Below, one piece after another: positions 3,710 to 34,802 of a stretch of 64,000 bases of DNA. Under the pieces are notes generated by a model, which searched no databases, had not been told where the DNA came from, and saw only the letters and a list, made by a program, of their open reading frames with translations. The first letter of the stretch is position 1. Each line of letters starts with the position of its first letter. This DNA is from a virus. The position numbers and the translations under genes were made by a program. Location of the stretch: IMG/VR virus record IMGVR_UViG_3300045988_090162. One strand, 5' to 3'.

Positions 3710-4069
3710 CTACTGAAGTCCATCAATTGCATCAATGCTAGAAAGAATAGTCTTACCATCTTCCTTAACCATATGACAGGCAAAAGGATAATCAGAGAAA
3801 TAGTTATCAGTTACAGGCAGATAGAGATAGTAATCATCCTCTTCATCTACGCCAGCGACCAAGACATTATCAATCAGGTCATACATAGTCGGCAGCTCAG
3901 TATCATTACACGTATCCCGATTGGTCGCAAGAATCTCAACCTGATAACCCGCGCACTTATAAATATAATACGCCGCAGATGCCACGAAATCCAAAGTCCA
4001 ATAGACGTTCTCATACTTCTCATTGGTCAACAGCATATGCATTCCTAATCCCAATCGTTGACAGTCCAA
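3710..4069 (-). CDS. hypothetical protein
   Basis: 119-aa ORF. Confidence 0.45.
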   Translation of the reverse strand: MDCQRLGLGMHMLLTNEKYENVYWTLDFVASAAYYIYKCAGYQVEILATNRDTCNDTELPTMYDLIDNVLVAGVDEEDDYYLYLPVTDNYFSDYPFACHMVKEDGKTILSSIDAIDGLQ

Positions 4070-13312: not shown

Positions 13313-13792
13313 TTACACAATCATATACTCGTCTACAAGACCATTGGCCTTAGCGCGAGCAGGCATATAACGACCAGCCCACATGCGCTTGATAACATCA
13401 TCAGGTACACGTTCAACACCTCCGCGCTTAGCATTCTGCGGCAAAGCGATGTCAAGACCACGGTTGAAGTACACAAGGATAATCTTGTCGGCGTTCTTGC
13501 CGCAATTCTCAACGGTCTTGCGAAGCGACTTCCAAGAAATATGAGTAGCATCTGCAATAACATTAATATCATTGCAAAGATTGTCGTTAATCTGACTATA
13601 GAAACCCTTAATAACGTCACTCTCATACTTAAAGTAATCAATAGAAGGAAGAAAATCAGGGTCATTTGCCATATACTCAAAGCGAATATAATCACGAGAA
13701 ACAATTTTGGCATTAAGTTCAGCACTATGCTCATGCGCCCAAAACGACTTGCCGCAACCAGGAATTCCTGCTAGAATATAAAGATTAGCCAT
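13313..13792 (-). CDS. polynucleotide 5'-kinase-like P-loop kinase (T4 Pnk kinase-domain-like)
   Basis: N-terminal LAGIPGCGKSFWA Walker A followed by the SRD.IR motif typical of T4 Pnk/AAA_33 kinases. Confidence 0.65.
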   Translation of the reverse strand: MANLYILAGIPGCGKSFWAHEHSAELNAKIVSRDYIRFEYMANDPDFLPSIDYFKYESDVIKGFYSQINDNLCNDINVIADATHISWKSLRKTVENCGKNADKIILVYFNRGLDIALPQNAKRGGVERVPDDVIKRMWAGRYMPARAKANGLVDEYMIV

Positions 13793-14619: not shown

Positions 14620-14626
14620 ATTTTCG

Positions 14627-14698
14627 TGCGCTAGTGGAGATTCGAACTCCAATCTCAAGAACGTCACCTTGCAATTTTGCCAGTTAAACTACTAACAC
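14627..14698 (-). tRNA. tRNA-like gene with atypical anticodon arm (possible pseudo-tRNA or non-canonical tRNA)
   Basis: Good acceptor (GTGTTAG/CTAGCGC with two G·U pairs), D-arm GTTT-AACTGGCA-AAAT and T-arm TGGAG-TTCGAAT-CTCCA; the anticodon region folds only as CAAGG/TCTTG around a 6-nt loop TGACGT (or a 4-bp stem with an 8-nt loop). Confidence 0.45.
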
Positions 14699-16725: not shown

Positions 16726-17322
16726 TTACTCTCCAAGCTCAATCTTTTTCTGCTGGACATCGAGCCAAATATCATGAATGCTGACAGGAGTAAGATTATT
16801 CGTGTCAACGCCTACGTGATATGTCCAATCAACAAGACCCTTGGGAGCCGCGTCATGGACATGACCATACAGAATGACATTGGCGCTGTCTCCACGCATT
16901 TCCTCGGGACGCTCATGAATCATAATGAAACTGACATCGTTGTAATCAAGGCAAGACACCTTGTTTTCGATAATCCAGCCGAGCTTTTCCATTTCTGCAA
17001 TGCGCTTCTTGGTATCATGATTGCCGGGAATCACATGAATCTTGCCGTTGAGACGAGAGCCATATTTAGCTACAGTCTCAAGTGGTCCCATGAAGCAATC
17101 ACCAAGATGATAGACAGTATCATCAGGAGATACAACGGAATTCCAGTTTTTGACAATAGCTTCATTCATTTCTTTGACCGTATCAAACGGACGCGACTCT
17201 GGACAAAACTTGATAATATTCTCATGTTGAAAATGAGTATCAGAAATAACAAAAACACTCATTGAATCTCCTTTCGATTTCTTAAATATATTATAACATA
17301 ATATATAGCCAATAGTCAACAA
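16726..17322 (-). CDS. calcineurin-like metallophosphoesterase (protein/polynucleotide phosphatase-like)
   Basis: Motifs ISDTHF (GDxHG-like), GDCFMG (GDxxDRG-like), GNHD, and GHVH. Confidence 0.75.
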   Translation of the reverse strand: MLTIGYILCYNIFKKSKGDSMSVFVISDTHFQHENIIKFCPESRPFDTVKEMNEAIVKNWNSVVSPDDTVYHLGDCFMGPLETVAKYGSRLNGKIHVIPGNHDTKKRIAEMEKLGWIIENKVSCLDYNDVSFIMIHERPEEMRGDSANVILYGHVHDAAPKGLVDWTYHVGVDTNNLTPVSIHDIWLDVQQKKIELGE

Positions 17323-17358
17323 AAAAATAGGGACTCAAAAGAGTCCCTACAAAAATAT
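17322..17358. terminator. bidirectional rho-independent terminator
   Basis: AAAAAAATAGGGACTCaaaaGAGTCCCTACAAAAATA. Confidence 0.65.
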
Positions 17359-17420
17359 CAATGTGTGCGAAAAAGTTAGATTCAGACTATTTTAATTGCC
17401 CTATGAAGTAACTGAATCTT
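17347..17420. repeat. hairpin-repeat unit 1 (ATGCG...TTAGATTCAG...CTGAATCTTAA...CGCAT family)
   Basis: Outer inverted ends TGCG/CGCA enclose an inner inverted repeat TTAGATTCAG / CTGAATCTTAA. Confidence 0.5.
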
Positions 17421-17699
17421 AATCACGCACATTTGCGCCTATATAGCTCGCACACTATATAGGCGAGAAAGGGGTTTACAAATAATGGCAAGGAAAAAGT
17501 GTAAAGAGTGTAGGTGGGGGTTGCCTCTTTCTAATGAAAGCTGCTCTTATTTAAACATATAACGAAGTAACTCTTTACTAATCACTTGCCGCACAAGAGA
17601 AAGCGATACGGAAATAGGTGTTTCAGTTTGAGTAATCAGCTCAGAATGGAGATTTGAAGTATCTGAAACGTTATCACGTATCGTCTACTTTAATAAAAT

Positions 17700-17810
17700 G
17701 AATGCGGAAAAGCCTAAATCAGTGAAATGTGTACCGACACAGAGCAGGAGCCGAACCTGCAAGCGCATTTTTCCAGAATGAAGTAACTGATTTATCATCA
17801 CGCATTATAG
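17700..17810. repeat. hairpin-repeat unit 2 (covariant stem CCTAAATCAGT / ACTGATTTATCA)
   Basis: Same outer ATGCGGAAAAG ... TCACGCAT frame as the other units, with compensatory changes in the inner stem. Confidence 0.5.
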
Positions 17811-17819
17811 TAAATAAAA

Positions 17820-17905
17820 TAAATGCGGAAAAGTTAGATTCAGTGTCTAATTATTAACATACCAAAATTAATGAAGTAACTGAATCTTAATCACGCATTT
17901 AATAA
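17820..17905. repeat. hairpin-repeat unit 3
   Basis: AATGCGGAAAAGTTAGATTCAG...GAAGTAACTGAATCTTAATCACGCAT. Confidence 0.5.
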
Positions 17906-17956
17906 ACGTTGGTGCCGCATCTAGGTACCGCCCCTAGCCAGTCTAAGACAGAAGAT

Positions 17957-18322
17957 TTACAAGTGTACGATATACTGATATGTATCAAAATATCCACTGT
18001 GGCACTCAGTTATATCAGAATATAACTTTATATGGGATTTATTCGTAATTTTGTTTACTGGTATAGAATACATTAAACCAGTTGTACCATTTAAACAAAA
18101 TAATAAATCTACAGGATGGTTTGTTACATTATCATATTCTTTTCCATTAGTGCCACCACAACTTCTTAAAGATATAGTATTATCTTTTGACGTTGTACAT
18201 TTGCATTGTACAGTTTGAAAGACGCCATCTTTTTCAATAATTAAATCATACCACTGTGTATCAGACAAAGGAAGAGAGACAGTATAGCCATTAGAACCAT
18301 AATATGCAATAGCCACTGACAT
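17957..18322 (-). CDS. hypothetical protein
   Basis: 121-aa ORF. Confidence 0.5.
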   Translation of the reverse strand: MSVAIAYYGSNGYTVSLPLSDTQWYDLIIEKDGVFQTVQCKCTTSKDNTISLRSCGGTNGKEYDNVTNHPVDLLFCLNGTTGLMYSIPVNKITNKSHIKLYSDITECHSGYFDTYQYIVHL

Positions 18323-18384
18323 TCCAGCCCTACTTCTATTTTTATTATTGTCTAATAGCCTTTTCCTCCTTTATGCTTCTAGTA

Positions 18385-18482
18385 TGCCTTGTCTTGGGTT
18401 CGGGAGTCGGACCCGAATGCCTTGCGGCGCTATTTTTTGAGAATAGTGTGTATGCCAGTTCCACCAACCCAAGATAAGGCAT
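18385..18482. repeat. long inverted repeat (18-bp arms) enclosing a GC-rich hairpin
   Basis: GTATGCCTTGTCTTGGGT ... ACCCAAGATAAGGCATAC, with inner hairpin TTCGGGAGTCGGACCCGAA. Confidence 0.55.
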
Positions 18483-18494
18483 ACTAACATGCCT

Positions 18495-18947
18495 TTAATT
18501 TGTCTGTTTCTGAATCCCAAGCTGGTCAAAAAACTCGTCTGGAATAAACTTGTCATCCAAAGGCTGATAATCTTTCCAGATAATCAGAGGATACCAAGTC
18601 TTTGACCACTCGGTAAATTCAGCGAATTCATCATTATATCCAAAAGAAACAGCAAAACCAAACCAGCTTGGTTTGACATGCGGGAAAGTCTTTTTGATAA
18701 TTCCCTCGTTGTCAACAAAATCGCCGATACGACCGCAAATAGTACAAACGTTCCTATAAGCATAAGTCCATGTGCCAGCATATTTATCAAAGTAATTGAT
18801 AACAATACTCTTATCGTAAGTGTGTTTATGATTGGCTTTCTTCACTGTCTTTTTCTTTTTACGAGCGGGAGCATTGGCCGCATCGTCGGGAATATAAGCA
18901 TATTTAGTTGCCAATACTTCACCTTTATAGGAATACGAGGACATCAA
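18495..18947 (-). CDS. hypothetical protein
   Basis: 150-aa ORF with a KKKK stretch. Confidence 0.5.
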   Translation of the reverse strand: MMSSYSYKGEVLATKYAYIPDDAANAPARKKKKTVKKANHKHTYDKSIVINYFDKYAGTWTYAYRNVCTICGRIGDFVDNEGIIKKTFPHVKPSWFGFAVSFGYNDEFAEFTEWSKTWYPLIIWKDYQPLDDKFIPDEFFDQLGIQKQTN

Positions 18948-18992
18948 AGCTCCTTTTCTACTTTTGGATAAACTGAGTAGCTATCTACTCTG

Positions 18993-19064
18993 CTGGAATG
19001 GTAGGACTCGAACCTACAACATTTTGATTAACGGTTAAACGCTCTACCATTGAGCTACACTCCA
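18993..19064 (-). tRNA. tRNA, anticodon GTT (Asn-like); anticodon stem carries an A·C mismatch
   Basis: acceptor TGGAGTG/CATTCCA, D-arm GCTC-AATGGTA-GAGC, anticodon loop CCGTTAA, T-arm GTAGG-TTCGAGT-CCTAC. Confidence 0.55.
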
Positions 19065-19093
19065 GCAGGGTAGATAAGCCACACTTTGTTCTA

Positions 19094-19162
19094 TTGGAGT
19101 GACAAGACTCGAACTTGCGACACGTTGAGTTAACAACATTCTACCAACTGAATTACACTCCA
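19094..19162 (-). tRNA. tRNA-like gene (69 nt) with atypical anticodon arm (6-nt loop TTAACT)
   Basis: acceptor TGGAGTG/CACTCCA, D-arm ATTC-AGTTGGTA-GAAT and T-arm GCAAG-TTCGAGT-CTTGT are fine; the anticodon region folds only as TGTTG/CAACG around TTAACT. Confidence 0.4.
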
Positions 19163-19384
19163 ATAGAATGGATTATTTAGATAAAAGAGCGTTATGAAGA
19201 TAATCGTCAGCTTCTTCAAACGTATCAAAGCTCTTGATAATTTCAAAACGAACAACAGAGCAATCAGTGTTGACACGAATCGAATAGATTCCGCAAGTCT
19301 TTTCACGACAAATGACGAACTGCTTCATAACAAACCTCTTTCTCTCTTGGTCTATATATATTATATAATATTATAAACCAAAAG

Positions 19385-19495
19385 TCAAGAAAAAATATGC
19401 GGAAAAATTGGGGTCAGACTAACAAATGCAGCGTACCGCATTTAAAATATACCATAAAATCTTCATGAAGTAACTGAACCCTCATCACGCATAAT
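19385..19495. repeat. hairpin-repeat unit 4 (covariant stem TTGGGGTCAG / CTGAACCCTCA)
   Basis: ATGCGGAAAAATTGGGGTCAG ... GAAGTAACTGAACCCTCATCACGCAT. Confidence 0.45.
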
Positions 19496-19502
19496 AAATA
19501 AA

Positions 19503-19691
19503 TTAGCTAAGAAAGAATGACACCCTGCTTTGCCTTGTTAATCTTGCGGCGAAGTTTGCGCATGATGCCGACATTCTCTGAGTTCTTACCTTTGCGATTG
19601 ATAAGCATCTGATAACGCTGCTCCATCGTCTCGATTGACTGTGCCATACTTCCTTACCTTTCTCTTGGTTTACTACACTAGAAGAAAACAA
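19503..19691 (-). CDS. small basic protein (Arg/Lys-rich)
   Basis: 62 aa, MAQSIETMEQRYQ...RKLRRKINKAKQG; preceded by a ~130-nt leader ending in CCAAGAGAAAGG, with promoter TTGACA-N17-GATATAAT at ~19805-19835. Confidence 0.45.
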   Translation of the reverse strand: MFSSSVVNQEKGKEVWHSQSRRWSSVIRCLSIAKVRTQRMSASCANFAARLTRQSRVSFFLS

Positions 19692-20224
19692 ATGGTCAAC
19701 CTAACGGCGTACTAAGCATTACACTTCTGGGTGTTGGCAATAAGCCGCAGGGTCACTGGTTTGTTGACGGTACTGTTGACTATCCTTTTTCCCTTTCCTT
19801 CTAGAAATATTATATCAAATTATTCAACTATTTGTCAAATAATTTTTTATAGCAAAAATTGGTCGCGAGGTGTTTCTGCTGCCGAAACTTAACAGAGCTT
19901 ATGAGACTCCGTGAGATACTGACCTCCCACCCGCAATTAAAGTAGTAATTTTCACATCTGCCGAGGTTTGAAAACTACCAAAATATACCAGATTCCTCTT
20001 CCCCTAGGCGCTTCTTTTCAAGTATGCGCTGGCCCGCATTGTCTACGGCTACAGAGACGGCATATATAAAATCTTGCAAGCAAGATAATATAATCACGTG
20101 GACGGTTTCAAACTGGGAAAACCGCCAACCCTTTAATCTATAGTCCCTGCAAAAGACTATAGAAGTCGGGAGACATTTACCTTGCAGCGATAACCTCTCC
20201 CCAGGCATTGGATATAACACAATC

Positions 20225-20675: not shown

Positions 20676-21314
20676 TTATATATACACCCAATGAAAACCA
20701 TATGCCGTCTTTTCTTTATTTTCACAAACTTGCTTAATATGCCTTGAAATTCCTTGTGTTGATTTATTTGTAGTGTAGTTATTATCAAAAAGCCAAGCGG
20801 ATGCTTCGTGCAACGATTGAAAAATCTTGTCTTTTTCTATTAAACATACACTTTTAGAATATCGTTCTTTAGAAAGAACATTAGATTGCAGTATTTCTAC
20901 ATTGCATTGTTTACATGCGTACCTAACCGTATCTGCACAACAATGAAAATGTTTTACTACTTTTATCGTATCATGTGTTTCAGTATGCATATCAGCTATT
21001 TTTTGATAATCATAAAAAGGTTTTCCGTCTCCACCTTTTGTAGCATTATATCCATTACAGCCATATGTATTTAGCTTAAAAATCCAATATTCTTCCTGTT
21101 TTGCCGCATCTTCAACGGAGCATTTTTCTAATTGCTCAACATGAAAATGCTCAATGCCATATTTATTCATAGCAGAATACAGAGGACGTTTTTCACATCT
21201 TTCTTTTCTGCTATCTGAAATATGCTCTTTAAATCTTTTGCTGATTGACTTATTAGTTTTTCCAACATATTGTTTTCCGTTAACATCGTTGGTAATTACA
21301 TAAATATAAGACAT
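20676..21314 (-). CDS. GIY-YIG homing endonuclease (free-standing)
   Basis: N-terminal SYIYVITNDVNGKQYVGKT, RFKEH and YGIEHF (GIY-YIG core) with a C-terminal DNA-binding extension. Confidence 0.75.
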   Translation of the reverse strand: MSYIYVITNDVNGKQYVGKTNKSISKRFKEHISDSRKERCEKRPLYSAMNKYGIEHFHVEQLEKCSVEDAAKQEEYWIFKLNTYGCNGYNATKGGDGKPFYDYQKIADMHTETHDTIKVVKHFHCCADTVRYACKQCNVEILQSNVLSKERYSKSVCLIEKDKIFQSLHEASAWLFDNNYTTNKSTQGISRHIKQVCENKEKTAYGFHWVYI

Positions 21315-25274: not shown

Positions 25275-26219
25275 TTAATTTTCAAACCAGTTACGCAACT
25301 CGATTACCGAAGGGCAAGTTCCTCGACCTTGCTCGCGGCACTCTTCCACGAACTCAGGAATTGCATCCATAAGACGAGGTTCAAATGCCAGCTTGGTCTT
25401 GATATTTTTGATAGTCTCAATATCACGTCCAGTCCAAACCTGCTGCAAAACTCCACGAGCCTTTTTCCAGTTCTTGTACCAAGGGGTCTTATATTTCACC
25501 ATGAATCCGTCTGCATCCTCGAAGACAAAGCCCTCGATGTATGCACGTGCGGACCACTTGTCAATGAAAGATTCAAACTCCTGCCAGTTAGCAATGACTT
25601 TGCTAAGAACCTTGCAATAGAATCCAAAATGTCCAGCTACATCAATAAGGGTATAGTACCCCGCATGGCTATAGTTGAAATCATTGTACACCAAGTCCAA
25701 AAGCACGAGGTGAGGATGCGAATACTCAACGATATGCGGGTCATGGATTGGGTCAATACACTCGAAGACAGCAGTGCAGTCATTCTTGCGCAGATATTCT
25801 GCGAATTCCTCCTGCTGTGCAGTGGTCAACGTCTTGTCAAGAACGTCACGGATATATCCTGCGAAATCTCCCTCATTCGTGCTCTTGGATGCGATGAACA
25901 GCTTACCGTCCTCGGTCGGGTCGGCAGAAATCATCGCAAGAAATCCGTTAGACTTGACATATGCGCACACAGGAAACACAAGGTTCTCGCGTAGGCTATC
26001 CATTTCAGTCTCAGGACGCTCTCCGATGTTGAAGAACTTGTTGTACGAACGTGCAACAACCTTATTATCTTTCACGAAAAGTCCGCGCGCCTTTACATTG
26101 ATGGAGTCCCATGCTTGGTTGAAAAAGCACTTGTTGGAGAAATTAAAAGACGAGATTCCATTTGCAAGATGCTTCTCGCGCACAAACGAGCTATTACGCA
26201 GCATATCGATTTCGTTCAT
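25275..26219 (-). CDS. RNA ligase, Rnl1/Trl1-like (KxNG nucleotidyltransferase)
   Basis: Start trimmed to MNEIDML (cassette promoter and CCAAGAGAGAGG leader at 26225-26290); motif I AYVKSNGFLAMIS resembles the Trl1/Rnl1 KANG lysine motif. Confidence 0.55.
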   Translation of the reverse strand: MNEIDMLRNSSFVREKHLANGISSFNFSNKCFFNQAWDSINVKARGLFVKDNKVVARSYNKFFNIGERPETEMDSLRENLVFPVCAYVKSNGFLAMISADPTEDGKLFIASKSTNEGDFAGYIRDVLDKTLTTAQQEEFAEYLRKNDCTAVFECIDPIHDPHIVEYSHPHLVLLDLVYNDFNYSHAGYYTLIDVAGHFGFYCKVLSKVIANWQEFESFIDKWSARAYIEGFVFEDADGFMVKYKTPWYKNWKKARGVLQQVWTGRDIETIKNIKTKLAFEPRLMDAIPEFVEECREQGRGTCPSVIELRNWFEN

Positions 26220-26290
26220 TTGTCTTCCTCTCTCTTGGTTTAATAATATTATATCATATATATAACTGTGCGGCAAATATTTTTTTCTAC

Positions 26291-26320
26291 AAAAAAAGGG
26301 AGAGGAACTAGTCCTCTCCC
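26291..26320 (-). terminator. rho-independent terminator
   Basis: minus strand GGGAGAGGACTAGTTCCTCTCCCTTTTTTTG. Confidence 0.65.
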
Positions 26321-26475
26321 TTAGTAGCATTTTCTTCAAATTCCATGCGCTCTAACTTTTCCTTACGTTTTGCTTTATAAGTATCGTCTTTGCGCTGACG
26401 AATTAGCTTTGCTTTGTGGGAAAACTTTTCAAAAGTATCATCATCGCTATACTCAAGTTCGTCCCAGTCACGAAT
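26308..26475 (-). CDS. small hypothetical protein (GTG start)
   Basis: AAAGGAtttattGTG start; acidic then basic tail. Confidence 0.3.
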   Translation of the reverse strand: MRDWDELEYSDDDTFEKFSHKAKLIRQRKDDTYKAKRKEKLERMEFEENATKGED

Positions 26476-28441: not shown

Positions 28442-29416
28442 TTATTTTTCATCGTATGCGGCAAAAGCATTTAGCATTTTAGTAATAAGAGCGTGCCTTA
28501 CAACATCTGCTTCTGTCATGCGGACAACGCCGATACCAGATACATCTTTCAGACTATTGGCAAGATATTCAAGACCGCTTTCGCCTTTGGAATCTTGCTG
28601 AACCAAGTCGCCGCACAAGACAATCTTAGAATCTTCTCCTAAACGTGTGACTGCAAGTTTTCCTAGAATCGTATTCATATTCTCTGCTTCATCCACGAGA
28701 AGGAAAGTCTTATATAGAGAACATCCGCGCATATATCCTAGCGGTAACATCTTAATTTTACCCTTTTCGATATATGAATCAAGTTTCTCACGCCCGAGAA
28801 CTCGTTCAAATACATCCATCATAGGAAGTGCATATAGTGAAAACTTTTCATCGGCAGTGCCGGGAAGTGCGCCTAAATCTGCTTCACCTTTTGCTGAAAC
28901 CATTGGACGAGAGATAACGATAGTATCTACATTCTTATTGATAAGCTGAGACAGAGCATAGCATACTGCTGTATAGGTCTTGCTTGCACCAGGAGGAGCA
29001 ATACAAATAGTAATAGCATTGTGCCGCATACTATTTAGATATTCAAGTTGACCTTCTGTGCGGACCTTGATTTCTTTCTTACCATATTTCAAAATCGTGG
29101 TAGAAGAATCAGAATTGTCAAAGATGCCGCCATCCGCACTTTGCCTTGCAAGAAGCTGTACTTCATCTGTACTGATTTCGTCTTTTGAGCAAGCAATTTC
29201 AATCAGCTTTTCAAATACCTCTTGAGCTTGATGTACAGATTTCTCCTTGCCAAAAATTACGATATTATTCTTTTCCTTAGAGCGTCCAAGATTAACACGT
29301 AGAGAGTCATCAATTTGCTCTTTAATGGCCTTCACATACCTATCTGATGGGCCTAGCACATTGACGGCATCAATACCACGAGGAATAGACACGTTAACTT
29401 GGATATTGTTGTTCAA
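28442..29416 (-). CDS. phoH: PhoH-like ATPase
   Basis: ICIAPPGASKTYTAV Walker A, DEAENM Walker B-like, and overall PhoH layout. Confidence 0.7.
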   Translation of the reverse strand: MNNNIQVNVSIPRGIDAVNVLGPSDRYVKAIKEQIDDSLRVNLGRSKEKNNIVIFGKEKSVHQAQEVFEKLIEIACSKDEISTDEVQLLARQSADGGIFDNSDSSTTILKYGKKEIKVRTEGQLEYLNSMRHNAITICIAPPGASKTYTAVCYALSQLINKNVDTIVISRPMVSAKGEADLGALPGTADEKFSLYALPMMDVFERVLGREKLDSYIEKGKIKMLPLGYMRGCSLYKTFLLVDEAENMNTILGKLAVTRLGEDSKIVLCGDLVQQDSKGESGLEYLANSLKDVSGIGVVRMTEADVVRHALITKMLNAFAAYDEK

Positions 29417-30024: not shown

Positions 30025-30597
30025 TTAACCTTTCATCCTATAGCGTCGAGAGTATTCCATCATGCAACATGCTGCGCTTTGCGCAACATTCAATGAGCGG
30101 CAAGAGCCATATTGGCGAATATAAATCATTTCATCACACTTGTCAATGATTTCTTTTGGTAGCCCATCACACTCATTCCCATATACAAACGCAGACTTCA
30201 TTGGAATGTCAACATCATAAATATTCTGCGGATTATACTCTGGAATATTATCTACAGCAAAAATAGTATATCCAAGAGGATGAAGAATCCCAAGAACTTC
30301 ATCGAAATCATCAGCATGATATACAGTTTCATATCTATGAGTGCTAATTGAGCCACGTCTATCCCACTTCTTGCGGCCAACGATATAGACTTCTTTCCCA
30401 AGAAACGCATTATGCGCACGGATGCCGCTAGCAATATTGATATTGTACCCTACATTCATAAAAATAGAAACCATTGGGAGCCTATTCTTTTGTAGGTCAG
30501 CTTTAATCTCTTCATCAGTCCACTTTTTATACGCATCAATGACATTTCGCTTTGCCGTCTCACAGAACTCTGTGCTGTAGCCATACTGAGTAATCAT
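30025..30597 (-). CDS. SPOUT (SpoU/TrmH-family) RNA 2'-O-methyltransferase
   Basis: C-terminal VYGNECDGL ... IRQYGSCRSLNVAQSAACCMME matches the SpoU motifs (GNE.GL, SLNV...A). Confidence 0.7.
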   Translation of the reverse strand: MITQYGYSTEFCETAKRNVIDAYKKWTDEEIKADLQKNRLPMVSIFMNVGYNINIASGIRAHNAFLGKEVYIVGRKKWDRRGSISTHRYETVYHADDFDEVLGILHPLGYTIFAVDNIPEYNPQNIYDVDIPMKSAFVYGNECDGLPKEIIDKCDEMIYIRQYGSCRSLNVAQSAACCMMEYSRRYRMKG

Positions 30598-32504: not shown

Positions 32505-33017
32505 CTAGATTGCTTTTAATTGGTCAATGATTGGCAAGATTTGCATATTGCTTGTGCCGATAGCGTAGTTTTGCTGCTCTGAAATAAATACAATCTTGTC
32601 AAACGGTTCATTGTCTTGTGGCGAAACTTTGCATCTATACATTTCTGCAATTTCCTTTTCACTTAGACGATGATATTTATCACGATTCTTATTGCGCGCA
32701 ACTGCTACATTTTTTGGAGTTTCAACCCAAACGCAAATAACTTCGCAGCCATTGTAATGTACATTGTTGAAAAACTTATCGCGTTGAGCGCGATTGATAT
32801 TGCGGTCATTCGCCACAACGTAACGATGTGATTTTAAGGCAATGTTAACTGCGTTATAAAAGCGCTTGTCAACTGTGTCGGCTTCTTCTGAATTATACAT
32901 GCGGCAATTATCTCTTTTGATTACCATACAGTCTTCATGTGAATCTTGAATTGCCTTTGCAAATACAGACTTACCGCTCTGCGTTACACCGCACATTAGA
33001 ATTAGCGTATGCTTCAT
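32505..33017 (-). CDS. P-loop NTPase (small kinase-like)
   Basis: MCGVTQSGKS Walker A at residues 8-17; 170 aa. Confidence 0.5.
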   Translation of the reverse strand: MKHTLILMCGVTQSGKSVFAKAIQDSHEDCMVIKRDNCRMYNSEEADTVDKRFYNAVNIALKSHRYVVANDRNINRAQRDKFFNNVHYNGCEVICVWVETPKNVAVARNKNRDKYHRLSEKEIAEMYRCKVSPQDNEPFDKIVFISEQQNYAIGTSNMQILPIIDQLKAI

Positions 33018-33869: not shown

Positions 33870-34802
33870 ATGTCTCATTTCAATAAGTATGTGCATCTTG
33901 AGCGCTCGACTCGTGCAGAAGTTCAGAACTTTATCGGTCGTGACACAATTTTGCAGCCGAAGCTGGATGGTACGAATAGTTCTATCTGGGTAAACGATAA
34001 TGGAAATATTACTTGCGGTAGCCGTACTCGTGAGATTTCTATCGAGAAGGATAACGCTGGTTTCGCTGATTATATCACCAACACTGACGATACTGAGGTT
34101 AAGGCACTAAAGAATTGGTTGCTTGACCATCCTAATTATATCATTTACGGCGAGTGGCTTGGCGGTGTTGATGGCCGCAAGTTCACTGGTACTATCAAGA
34201 CTTATCTTGAAGGCGGATTCTTCATCTTTGATATTCTCAATACTAAGGATGGTGAGTATGTTGATTATGATGTATGGTGTCCAGTAGTTAGTAAGTTCTA
34301 TCATCGTTGCGTTCCTGTCATTTGCCGCATTAGCAACATGACTTGGGACGATGTGAACAAGCACGTTGACGAGTGTACTTACAATCTTCCAAAGGGGACT
34401 ATCGGTGAGGGCATCGTAATCAAGGCTTACCCTTGCGTGCGCGACCCATGGGGTAATGTTCAGATTGCCAAGATTGTTCGTGACGAGTGGCATCATTACA
34501 AGTCTAAGAAGAAGACTGTCTACACGGGCAATGACTCTTTGGAGAAGGAGTTTGTAGAGAAGTATTGCACTGAGGCTTTTGTCGAGAAGGAAGTCAATAA
34601 AGTTCTTATCGCTCTTGATATGGAGAAAATTGATTGCAAGAACGACAAGTTCTTCGGCATGGCTATCAATAAGGTTCTTGACGAACTTATGGAAGAGAAC
34701 TTCTGGGATTTCTTCAAGAAGAAGAAAGCTGCTTCTGTCAAACTGGCCGCAATCAAGGGTCTTACTCAAGCACGAGTACGCGAGTACATTCTTAACAACT
34801 AA
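33870..34802 (+). CDS. RNA ligase 2-like (Rnl2 family) nucleotidyltransferase
   Basis: FNKYVHLER...(22 aa)...KLDGTN (KxDG motif I) in the same arrangement as the T4 Rnl2 N-terminus (FKKYSSLEN...KIHGTN). Confidence 0.6.
   Translation: MSHFNKYVHLERSTRAEVQNFIGRDTILQPKLDGTNSSIWVNDNGNITCGSRTREISIEKDNAGFADYITNTDDTEVKALKNWLLDHPNYIIYGEWLGGVDGRKFTGTIKTYLEGGFFIFDILNTKDGEYVDYDVWCPVVSKFYHRCVPVICRISNMTWDDVNKHVDECTYNLPKGTIGEGIVIKAYPCVRDPWGNVQIAKIVRDEWHHYKSKKKTVYTGNDSLEKEFVEKYCTEAFVEKEVNKVLIALDMEKIDCKNDKFFGMAINKVLDELMEENFWDFFKKKKAASVKLAAIKGLTQARVREYILNN

Follow-up and report, generated by a model that had tools for sequence, protein, structure and literature searches.

Organization of the locus

The window analyzed here, a 64,000-nucleotide (64-kb) stretch of the virus record IMGVR_UViG_3300045988_090162, contains six hairpin-forming units within a cluster of tRNA and RNA-repair genes, and these units are probably genes for small RNAs resembling the Y RNAs that are bound by the protein Ro60. 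All coordinates refer to the plus strand of the window, and the minus strand is called the gene strand. The minus strand carries all genes from position 1 to about 33 kb as well as all the tRNA genes. The genes around the units encode RNA ligases of both T4 types, two polynucleotide-kinase-like proteins, a metallophosphoesterase, a SpoU methylase, PhoH, and at least 12 tRNAs.

Reading of positions 16800-20000 identified six units that all share one frame, five of them arranged head to tail at 17364-17900 and the sixth standing apart at 19396-19494. A preliminary description, made from the sequence alone, had reported four units at about 17347, 17700, 17820, and 19385. All four are present with the frame described there, but two others (17487-17591 and 17605-17683) had been missed, and the tandem array holds five copies instead of three. 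A regular-expression search of the window for GAAGTA[AT]-N7-14-[AT]TCAC returned exactly six matches on the plus strand and none on the opposite strand. The covariance model R1, built from the six units (alignment A1), likewise returned only these six from the window, with scores of 65-96 bits and E-values of 6e-17 to 9e-11, while the next-best match had an E-value of 2.9.

On the gene strand, the array is led by U5 (17822-17900, minus; 79 nt), which scored 81.7 bits with R1 and gave fold z-scores of -6.2 (plus strand) and -4.5 (minus strand). U4 (17701-17807, minus; 107 nt, 78.2 bits) was assigned by its fold, and U3 (17605-17683, minus; 79 nt, 67.8 bits) and U2 (17487-17591, minus; 105 nt, 83.1 bits) by sequence and fold. 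U3 has the outer stem GATACG/CGTATC and GAAGTAT in place of GAAGTAA, and U2 combines the outer stem GGCAAG/CTTGCC with the inner stem GTAAAGAG/CTCTTTAC. The final unit of the array, U1 (17364-17432, minus; 69 nt), scored 65.3 bits (E-value 9e-11) with fold z-scores of -5.0 (plus) and -3.2 (minus), and a terminator comes directly after it. The solitary U6 (19396-19494, minus; 99 nt, 96.1 bits) is placed between the stop codon of a conserved 46-amino-acid (46-aa) open reading frame (ORF; 19507-19647, minus) and the next promoter, with AUUUUUUC following it on the gene strand. A hairpin outside the family, GCCTATATAG...CTATATAGGC, occupies 17433-17486 between U1 and U2 and is kept in close relatives.

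Structure and covariation of the units

All six units fold into a terminal stem of 5-7 bp, a bulge, two pairs, an internal loop, and a second stem of 8-9 bp, which carries a variable tip of 20-55 nt. The fold z-scores of the six units against shuffled sequences ranged from -2.1 to -6.2 on the plus strand and from -1.5 to -4.5 on the minus strand. Read on the gene strand, the 5′ half consists of the terminal stem, a bulged U, GA (which pairs with UC), an internal loop Y-N-R opposite N-U-U, the second stem, and UUACUUC, after which the variable tip begins. The 3′ half after the tip consists of A-N-A, the 3′ strand of the second stem, (A)UUU-UCC, the 3′ strand of the terminal stem, and usually a U-rich tail. 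In U5, for example, the terminal stem pairs 17822-17827 with 17894-17899, followed by G17828:C17892 and A17829:T17891 with 17893 bulged, and the second stem pairs 17836-17843 with 17880-17887, adjoining GAAGTAA at 17873-17879 (plus-strand coordinates). The minus strand of U1 has a G:U pair beside the bulge, where the plus strand has A-C. The tip of U4 (minus strand) contains a mimic of a tRNA T arm, GCAGG-UUCGGCU-CCUGC (17744-17760), then the hairpin UGUGU-CGGU-ACACA, and has no D arm.

A pattern scan of viral contigs yielded 38 loci, 17 of which are close relatives (contigs of 81-148 kb) that have the same array behind the same terminator hairpin and in which R1 finds 97 units. Across these 97 units, 97.4% of the cells are paired and 11 of the 16 pairs change on both sides, whereas the paired fraction falls to 28-41% in a slid control with the 3′ partner moved by 1-3 columns. 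In a set of 48 units that includes distant lineages, 97.0% of the cells are paired, both sides change in 13 of the 16 pairs, and the covariation score reaches 0.72, compared with 0.17 in shuffles and no more than 0.12 in slid controls. The alignments were fitted to the model and are therefore biased toward structure, yet the margin is still large. The units are a family under selection for secondary structure. The covariation that had been read from a few copies is thus borne out by the folds and by the substitutions within the window and across lineages, and the pairing is kept in 97% of the cells in related genomes. The proposal that selection acts on structure rather than sequence was right about structure but went too far in setting sequence aside, as GUGA and UUUCC at the base and UUACUUC past the second stem (gene strand) are nearly invariant.

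A chance control was performed with a loose sequence pattern, which gave at least 120 matches in bacterial and archaeal genomes; none of those among the matches listed had complementary stems, and the same complementary-stem test recovers all six units of the window. The matches listed were all attributed to chance, and a host or prophage copy among them was rejected.

Promoters, terminators, and the probable strand of the RNA

An intrinsic terminator (17327-17350, minus; 10-bp stem and seven T) lies directly 3′ of U1, and close relatives have the same hairpin ahead of the array. It had been regarded as the terminator of the phosphoesterase gene, but it is a minus-strand terminator upstream of that gene and would end the minus-strand transcript bearing U5 to U1. 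Downstream of it is a sigma-70-type promoter of the phosphoesterase gene (17290-17319, minus; TTGACT, 18-nt spacer, TATAAT). A second sigma-70-type promoter (19360-19388, minus; TTGACT, 17-nt spacer, TATAAT), directly past U6, is likely the start of a transcript that runs through small ORFs and tRNA or tRNA-like genes into the array. Every 11/12 or 12/12 promoter match that flanks the units is on the minus strand. On the plus strand, the best match ahead of any unit is 9/12 (such weak matches precede U4 and U5), and the two plus-strand 11/12 matches (14946 and 18673) fall in other parts of the scanned region, upstream of no unit.

There is a small chance that the units are not trans-acting RNAs at all, and serve polycistronic tRNA and mRNA transcripts in cis, as hairpins for processing, stability, or termination such as RNase III-type sites or leaky terminators. 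They lie at the 3′ ends of transcription units, most are followed by U-rich tracts, and U6 sits exactly where a terminator would be expected, with AUUUUUUC next to it. The early-region RNase III sites of phage T7 are intergenic two-stem hairpins with an internal loop, found singly between genes, and the T4 and T5 tRNA clusters contain small stable RNAs co-transcribed with the phage tRNAs; the units have the same two-stem intergenic architecture and would likewise be co-transcribed with tRNAs. Compared by description only, however, the T7 sites form no tandem arrays and have no paralogue-specific tips. Intrinsic terminators are short G+C-rich hairpins with a run of U immediately behind them, and the terminator scan called the hairpin at 17327-17350 and none of the six units, whose terminal stems are A+U-rich, whose span is 70-110 nt, and of which only U6 is followed by six consecutive U. 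Furthermore, five differing units stand in tandem with no intervening genes and with a separate strong terminator after them, and the conserved paralogue-specific tips, which include covarying T arms and, in relatives, full tRNA-like modules, would not be needed by a cleavage site.

At related loci oriented by the phosphoesterase gene, all 49 of 49 model matches are on the same relative strand, and the T-arm and D-arm sequences inside units can be read as tRNA arms on the gene strand only. Because of the promoter and terminator layout, the constant orientation in relatives, and the reading direction of the tRNA arms, the minus strand is taken as the RNA strand. The strongest of these arguments is that the tRNA arms are readable solely on the gene strand. 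Wobble pairs in the diverse set numbered 13 on the gene strand versus 5 on the other, which lends slight support given that the cells are non-independent, and in the close clade the counts were 15 versus 15, which is uninformative on strand. The functional strand is most likely the minus strand, contrary to the preliminary description, which had written the motif on the plus strand.

It is very improbable that the RNAs are made from the plus strand, antisense to the surrounding genes, with the purine-rich GGAAAAG and GAAGUAA as functional single strands. The conserved unpaired elements are indeed purine-rich on that strand, its fold z-scores are equal or better, and the stem/loop-junction CGGAAA or CGAAAA is similar to the CGAA motif found in the Y-like RNAs of bacteria and phiLo (PMC4201824; PMC12135203), in addition to the 9/12 promoter-like matches ahead of U4 and U5. 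Against this, nothing better than 9/12 precedes any unit there, the T-arm, D-arm, and YrlA matches are confined to the other strand, the orientation to the flanking genes is constant across lineages, and the wobble pairs of the diverse set favor the gene strand.

The equal wobble counts in the close clade would also be expected of sites that act as DNA, such as a protein-bound cruciform or hairpin, an origin, a recombination or endonuclease site, or a miniature mobile element, and an endonuclease gene of the PD-(D/E)XK type adjoins the array, with GIY-YIG genes nearby. We nevertheless consider this extremely improbable, given that the conserved elements are asymmetric and not mutual inverted repeats, that relatives have tRNA-like modules within the frame, that the syntenic positions are fixed and not scattered, and that there are no further copies in the 64 kb. 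Of the two possibilities raised earlier, a small-RNA family is therefore the best reading, while protein-binding DNA palindromes are poorly supported by these asymmetric elements and tRNA-like modules.

Several other element types were tried and rejected. Hammerhead, hairpin, and other ribozyme cores, a kink-turn or C/D box (UGAUGA, minus strand), and a sarcin-ricin AGUA/GAA motif were judged by eye to lack the required opposition of conserved elements, and no model matched. A mini-ORF ATG-AAG-TAA on the plus strand has no ribosome-binding site, and U2 and U3 do not preserve it. A type III toxin-antitoxin RNA array, integron attC sites, miniature inverted-repeat transposable elements, and CRISPR-like repeats were set aside, with no dedicated test, as the units are not near-identical, their syntenic positions are fixed, and there are no cassettes.

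Occurrence in relatives and tRNA-like modules

Distant phages were reached through the phosphoesterase gene adjoining the array. Units were found at the same place and in the same orientation in lineages with a phosphoesterase identity of 37-59% (L060, L134 and L136, L063, L146, L148, L151 and L175, and L156). The stem sequences of these distant lineages differ, while the frame elements are identical in kind, and the gene-strand 5′ element (S)G-U-G-A-Y is common to all lineages.

The unit at 3787-3923 of L060 contains the frame together with a T arm, GUCGG-UUCGAAU-CCGAC, a closed hairpin, CAUC-UACG-GAUG, and a D arm, UAGCUCAACAGGGAGAGC. Its unconstrained minimum-free-energy fold consists of the terminal stem, the loop, the second stem, and the three arms. 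The three-arm module is also present in the same order in L134 (1288-1424) and in two units of L148 (149-272 and about 2080-2250), and such units with a tRNA-like core are about 137 nt long. The Rfam family YrlA (RF02553) is the top non-tRNA match on the module-bearing units of these relatives, with 28.8-35.4 bits and E-values of 1e-4 to 4e-3, below its gathering score of 69 bits. Units with a T arm occur in several of the examined lineages, and their stems covary (GCAGG/CCUGC, GCUGG/CCAGC, AUUGG/CCAAU, GUUGG/CCAAC) around a UUCRAnU-type loop.

The 46-aa ORF upstream of U6 is 93% identical to that at 3642-3782 of L060, where the phosphoesterase is only 59% identical, and because this preceding ORF is conserved, the L060 unit at 3787-3923 is the positional counterpart of U6. 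The encoded product (MAQSIETMEQRYQMLINRKGKNSENVGIMRKLRRKINKAKQGVILS; minus strand, directly upstream of U6) is Lys/Arg-rich, has no Pfam match, and is also present in L059 (375-515). Across three lineages, its downstream neighbour is a Y-like unit, a YrlA-like unit, or an extended-stem tRNA.

No unit was found upstream of the phosphoesterase gene in L135, where a GIY-YIG gene occupies the short contig, or in L059, where other ORFs are found there and the U6 position holds a hairpin and an extended-stem tRNA. L063, like L135, has a GIY-YIG gene at the array position or close to it, upstream of the phosphoesterase gene. A megablast search with the array region gave no match among GenBank phages, and the nearest phage gyrase is less than 30% identical. 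Consequently, the phage has no annotated relative.

The phage Ro60 gene and its co-occurrence with the units

The window contains a full-length Ro60 gene with TROVE and vWA domains (36779-38209, plus; Pfam TROVE E-value 7e-14), which lies 19 kb from the array, had escaped the preliminary description, and is the source of the family's most likely identity. In a phmmer search, its product matched the Ro60 of phage phiLo (9kop/9l5y) with an E-value of 3e-21. The AlphaFold model (pLDDT 77) had a Foldseek TM-score of 0.73 to 9kop, making phiLo Ro60 its closest solved relative, and TM-scores of 0.62-0.65 to Deinococcus radiodurans Rsr and to Xenopus and human Ro60. The DVSGSM sequence of the MIDAS motif is invariant or nearly so (alignment A3). 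The Ro60 cluster of this phage clade stands for more than 1,100 sequences in public assemblies.

Co-occurrence was assessed by cross-tabulation of contigs, using short windows (3.5 kb on each side) and pattern-based Ro60 detection. All seven distant unit-bearing contigs (37-59% phosphoesterase identity) carry a Ro60 relative with 41-71% identity. Of the unit-bearing contigs of the close clade, all but four carry Ro60, the exceptions being shorter than the genome of roughly 140 kb. By contrast, about 35 phosphoesterase loci on contigs with no detected Ro60 gave no unit, apart from two identical marginal matches (E-value 0.68). This set includes phages of 150-188 kb with phosphoesterases 44-50% identical, as close as some of the Ro60-positive lineages. 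The co-occurrence of the units with Ro60 is suggestive only.

Proposed assignment of the units as Y RNA-like small RNAs

The hallmark of YrlA, a Y RNA bound by bacterial Ro60, is a long terminal stem that carries a circularly permuted mimic of a tRNA (PMC4201824; bioRxiv 10.1101/312249). Mycobacteriophages, CcrColossus, Bacillus phage G, and phiLo are known to have Ro60 proteins together with phage-encoded Y-like RNAs (PMC4201824; PMC12135203). Since some relatives of the units have the YrlA architecture, the phage encodes its own Ro60, the two co-occur, the context is one of RNA repair, and phage Ro60 proteins with Y-like RNAs are documented, we consider it probable that the six units are minus-strand genes for Y RNA-like small RNAs, about 70-110 nt long, that have a Ro60 handle in common and diversified tips.

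The likeness to YrlA (RF02553; found in bacteria and some phages) extends to several features. Both are modular: the 5′ and 3′ ends pair into a long stem, interrupted by internal loops, which serves as the handle and is present in all six units, and the tip is the effector module. The order of stems is the same (terminal stem, loop, second stem, UA-containing junction, then tRNA-like core), and some tips in the relatives contain the same permuted T arm, closed acceptor hairpin, and D arm. The handle resembles the GA-ended terminal stem of YrlA, a Ro60 gene is present in the same genome, and the unit sizes of 69-107 nt are within or near the YrlA size of about 80-130 nt. Unlike YrlA, the units of the window lack the tRNA-like core, U4 having only a T arm and a hairpin, and give no Rfam match. 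The 5′ element is G-U(bulge)-GA-Y and not GNCGAAN0-1G, and the six paralogues, five of which are tandem copies, lie 19 kb away from the Ro60 gene, in contrast to YrlA, which adjoins it (rsr).

The handle can also be compared with metazoan Y RNAs and D. radiodurans Yrn1, which have a single bulged pyrimidine in the 5′ strand of the terminal helix, followed by G-A pairs and an internal loop. The metazoan helix GGUC-C-GA/UUGACC corresponds to NNGCG-U-GA/UC-CGCNN in the units, a likeness drawn by eye and from the literature (PMC4201824; PMC12135203). A U-rich 3′ end and several paralogues per genome with differing loops are further common features, but no sequence homology was detectable, and there was no Rfam Y_RNA match at an E-value of 10. 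Yrl1 and Yrl2 of the Thermus phage phiLo are phage-encoded Y-like stem-bulge-stem hairpins bound by the phage Ro60 (PMC12135203). In contrast to the units, they are two RNAs just upstream of the Ro60 gene that were picked by their CGAA motif, and they share no frame with the units.

A number of observations weigh against this assignment. The conserved motif GNCGAAN0-1G in the 5′ strand of YrlA is the presumed Ro60 contact (PMC4201824), and it has no match on the gene strand of the units, where G-U-G-A-Y shares only Y-G-A with GGUCCGA and GNCGAA. The opposite strand, with CGGAAA or CGAAAA, is closer to the motif, and therefore motif resemblance cannot settle the strand; nor do the wobble pairs of the close clade favor the gene strand. 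The Ro60 gene is 19 kb from the array and on the opposite strand, whereas known YrlA genes adjoin Ro60, and no Y-like RNA was found in the flanks of the Ro60 gene. Within the window, the full tRNA-like module is found in none of the six units, with only a T arm and hairpin in U4. Searches of both strands of the units against Rfam, at the gathering threshold and at an E-value of 10, matched no family to any unit. The tRNAs were the only genuine Rfam matches in the window, and known ribozyme and riboswitch classes gave no match on either strand at E-values up to 10. In the Ro60-positive L147, the 3.5 kb on either side of the phosphoesterase gene contain no unit, and the co-occurrence with Ro60 could stem partly from shared ancestry.

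There is a modest chance that the units are minus-strand structured RNAs whose frame is a handle for a protein other than Ro60, with phage RNA ligases, kinases, the phosphoesterase, PhoH, or a host tRNA enzyme as candidates, or that they are decoys for host anticodon nucleases or other RNA-targeting defences. The published Ro60 motif has no exact match in the units, their embedding in the tRNA and RNA-repair gene cluster is consistent with such a role, and T-arm and tRNA-like tips could bait tRNA-directed enzymes. However, a permuted tRNA-like module on a long terminal stem has so far been described only for Ro60-bound YrlA (PMC4201824), and Ro60 is found on all complete-length contigs that bear units.

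As Y RNA-like genes, the units would be co-transcribed with the phage tRNA and RNA-repair cluster and then trimmed into single units. The shared handle, comprising the terminal stem, the bulged U, GA:UC, the internal loop, the second stem, and UUACUUC, may be the docking site of the phage Ro60, by analogy to the terminal bulged helix of Y RNAs. The variable tip would then be the effector module, tethering Ro60 to differing partners or gating the Ro60 cavity during infection, as suggested by analogy to the D. radiodurans machine of Ro60, Y RNA, and PNPase and to the phiLo complexes (PMC4201824; PMC12135203). Candidate partners of the tips are the host PNPase, tRNA-handling enzymes, and other host or phage enzymes.

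No description of this RNA family was found in the literature searched. Phage Ro60 proteins with Y-like RNAs were known already, and the family is most likely a variant of that system and not a new kind of element. What is new is the distinct handle consensus, the six paralogues with five in tandem, the site inside the tRNA cluster 19 kb from Ro60, the tips that mostly lack the tRNA mimic, and the family's invisibility to the Rfam model. This clade offers a natural experiment on Y RNA modularity. The phages are common, one conserved handle is joined to six differing tips, and some tips are a full tRNA mimic in one lineage and a simpler hairpin in another. Should the handle bind the phage Ro60, the partner recruited by each tip becomes accessible to tests, with PNPase, tRNA enzymes, and repair ligases as candidates. 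Y-like RNAs can sit at a distance from the Ro60 gene and go undetected by current covariance models, and therefore Ro60-positive genomes recorded as having no Y RNA may hold unrecognized ones.

Neighbouring enzymes and RNA genes

The RNA repair and modification genes are located at 13313-13792, 16726-17262, 25275-26339, 28442-29416, 30025-30597, and 32505-33017 on the minus strand and at 33870-34802 on the plus strand. They encode two AAA_33 kinase-like proteins, the metallophosphoesterase, Rnl1-like and Rnl2-like RNA ligases, PhoH, and the SpoU methylase. Endonuclease genes are found at 17957-18322 and 20676-21314 (minus) and at 45030-45914 (plus), one of the PD-(D/E)XK_5 type and two of the GIY-YIG type. 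The PD-(D/E)XK_5 gene is directly upstream of the array.

Three minus-strand tRNA or tRNA-like genes (18380-18486, 18982-19076, and 19089-19168) have acceptor stems extended by 10-13 bp through pairing of leader and trailer. They have no encoded CC(A), while CCA or CCT is present after each of the other ten tRNA genes. Extended-stem tRNAs recur in L060 (4298-4396), L059 (571-665), and L063 (3850-3945) with differing stem sequences, and a run of eight T follows in L063. With the long terminal stem at the acceptor position, these genes recall D. radiodurans Yrn1; alternatively, they could be RNase III-processed precursors or tRNA-terminator hybrids. They would also belong to the pathway if the frame of the units were a processing and ligation cassette and not a Ro60 site, an idea that we regard as improbable. 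The permuted tRNA-like cores would then be cut and re-joined by the phage kinase, phosphoesterase, and ligase, yielding tRNA-like RNAs in circular or re-permuted form, or spare tRNA parts to stand in for host tRNAs that defence nucleases have cleaved.

The tRNA-like gene at 19094-19162 (minus; Rfam tRNA 44.9 bits) has an "anticodon" arm of 4 bp with 6 nt and was not called by ARAGORN. Together with a neighbouring tRNA-Asn copy, it is the source of a 41-bit YrlA match at 19011-19139, which was rejected as an artefact of two neighbouring tRNA-like genes. At 14626-14698 (minus), ARAGORN called a tRNA with a four-base anticodon (gacg), which scored 37.6 bits with the Rfam tRNA model.

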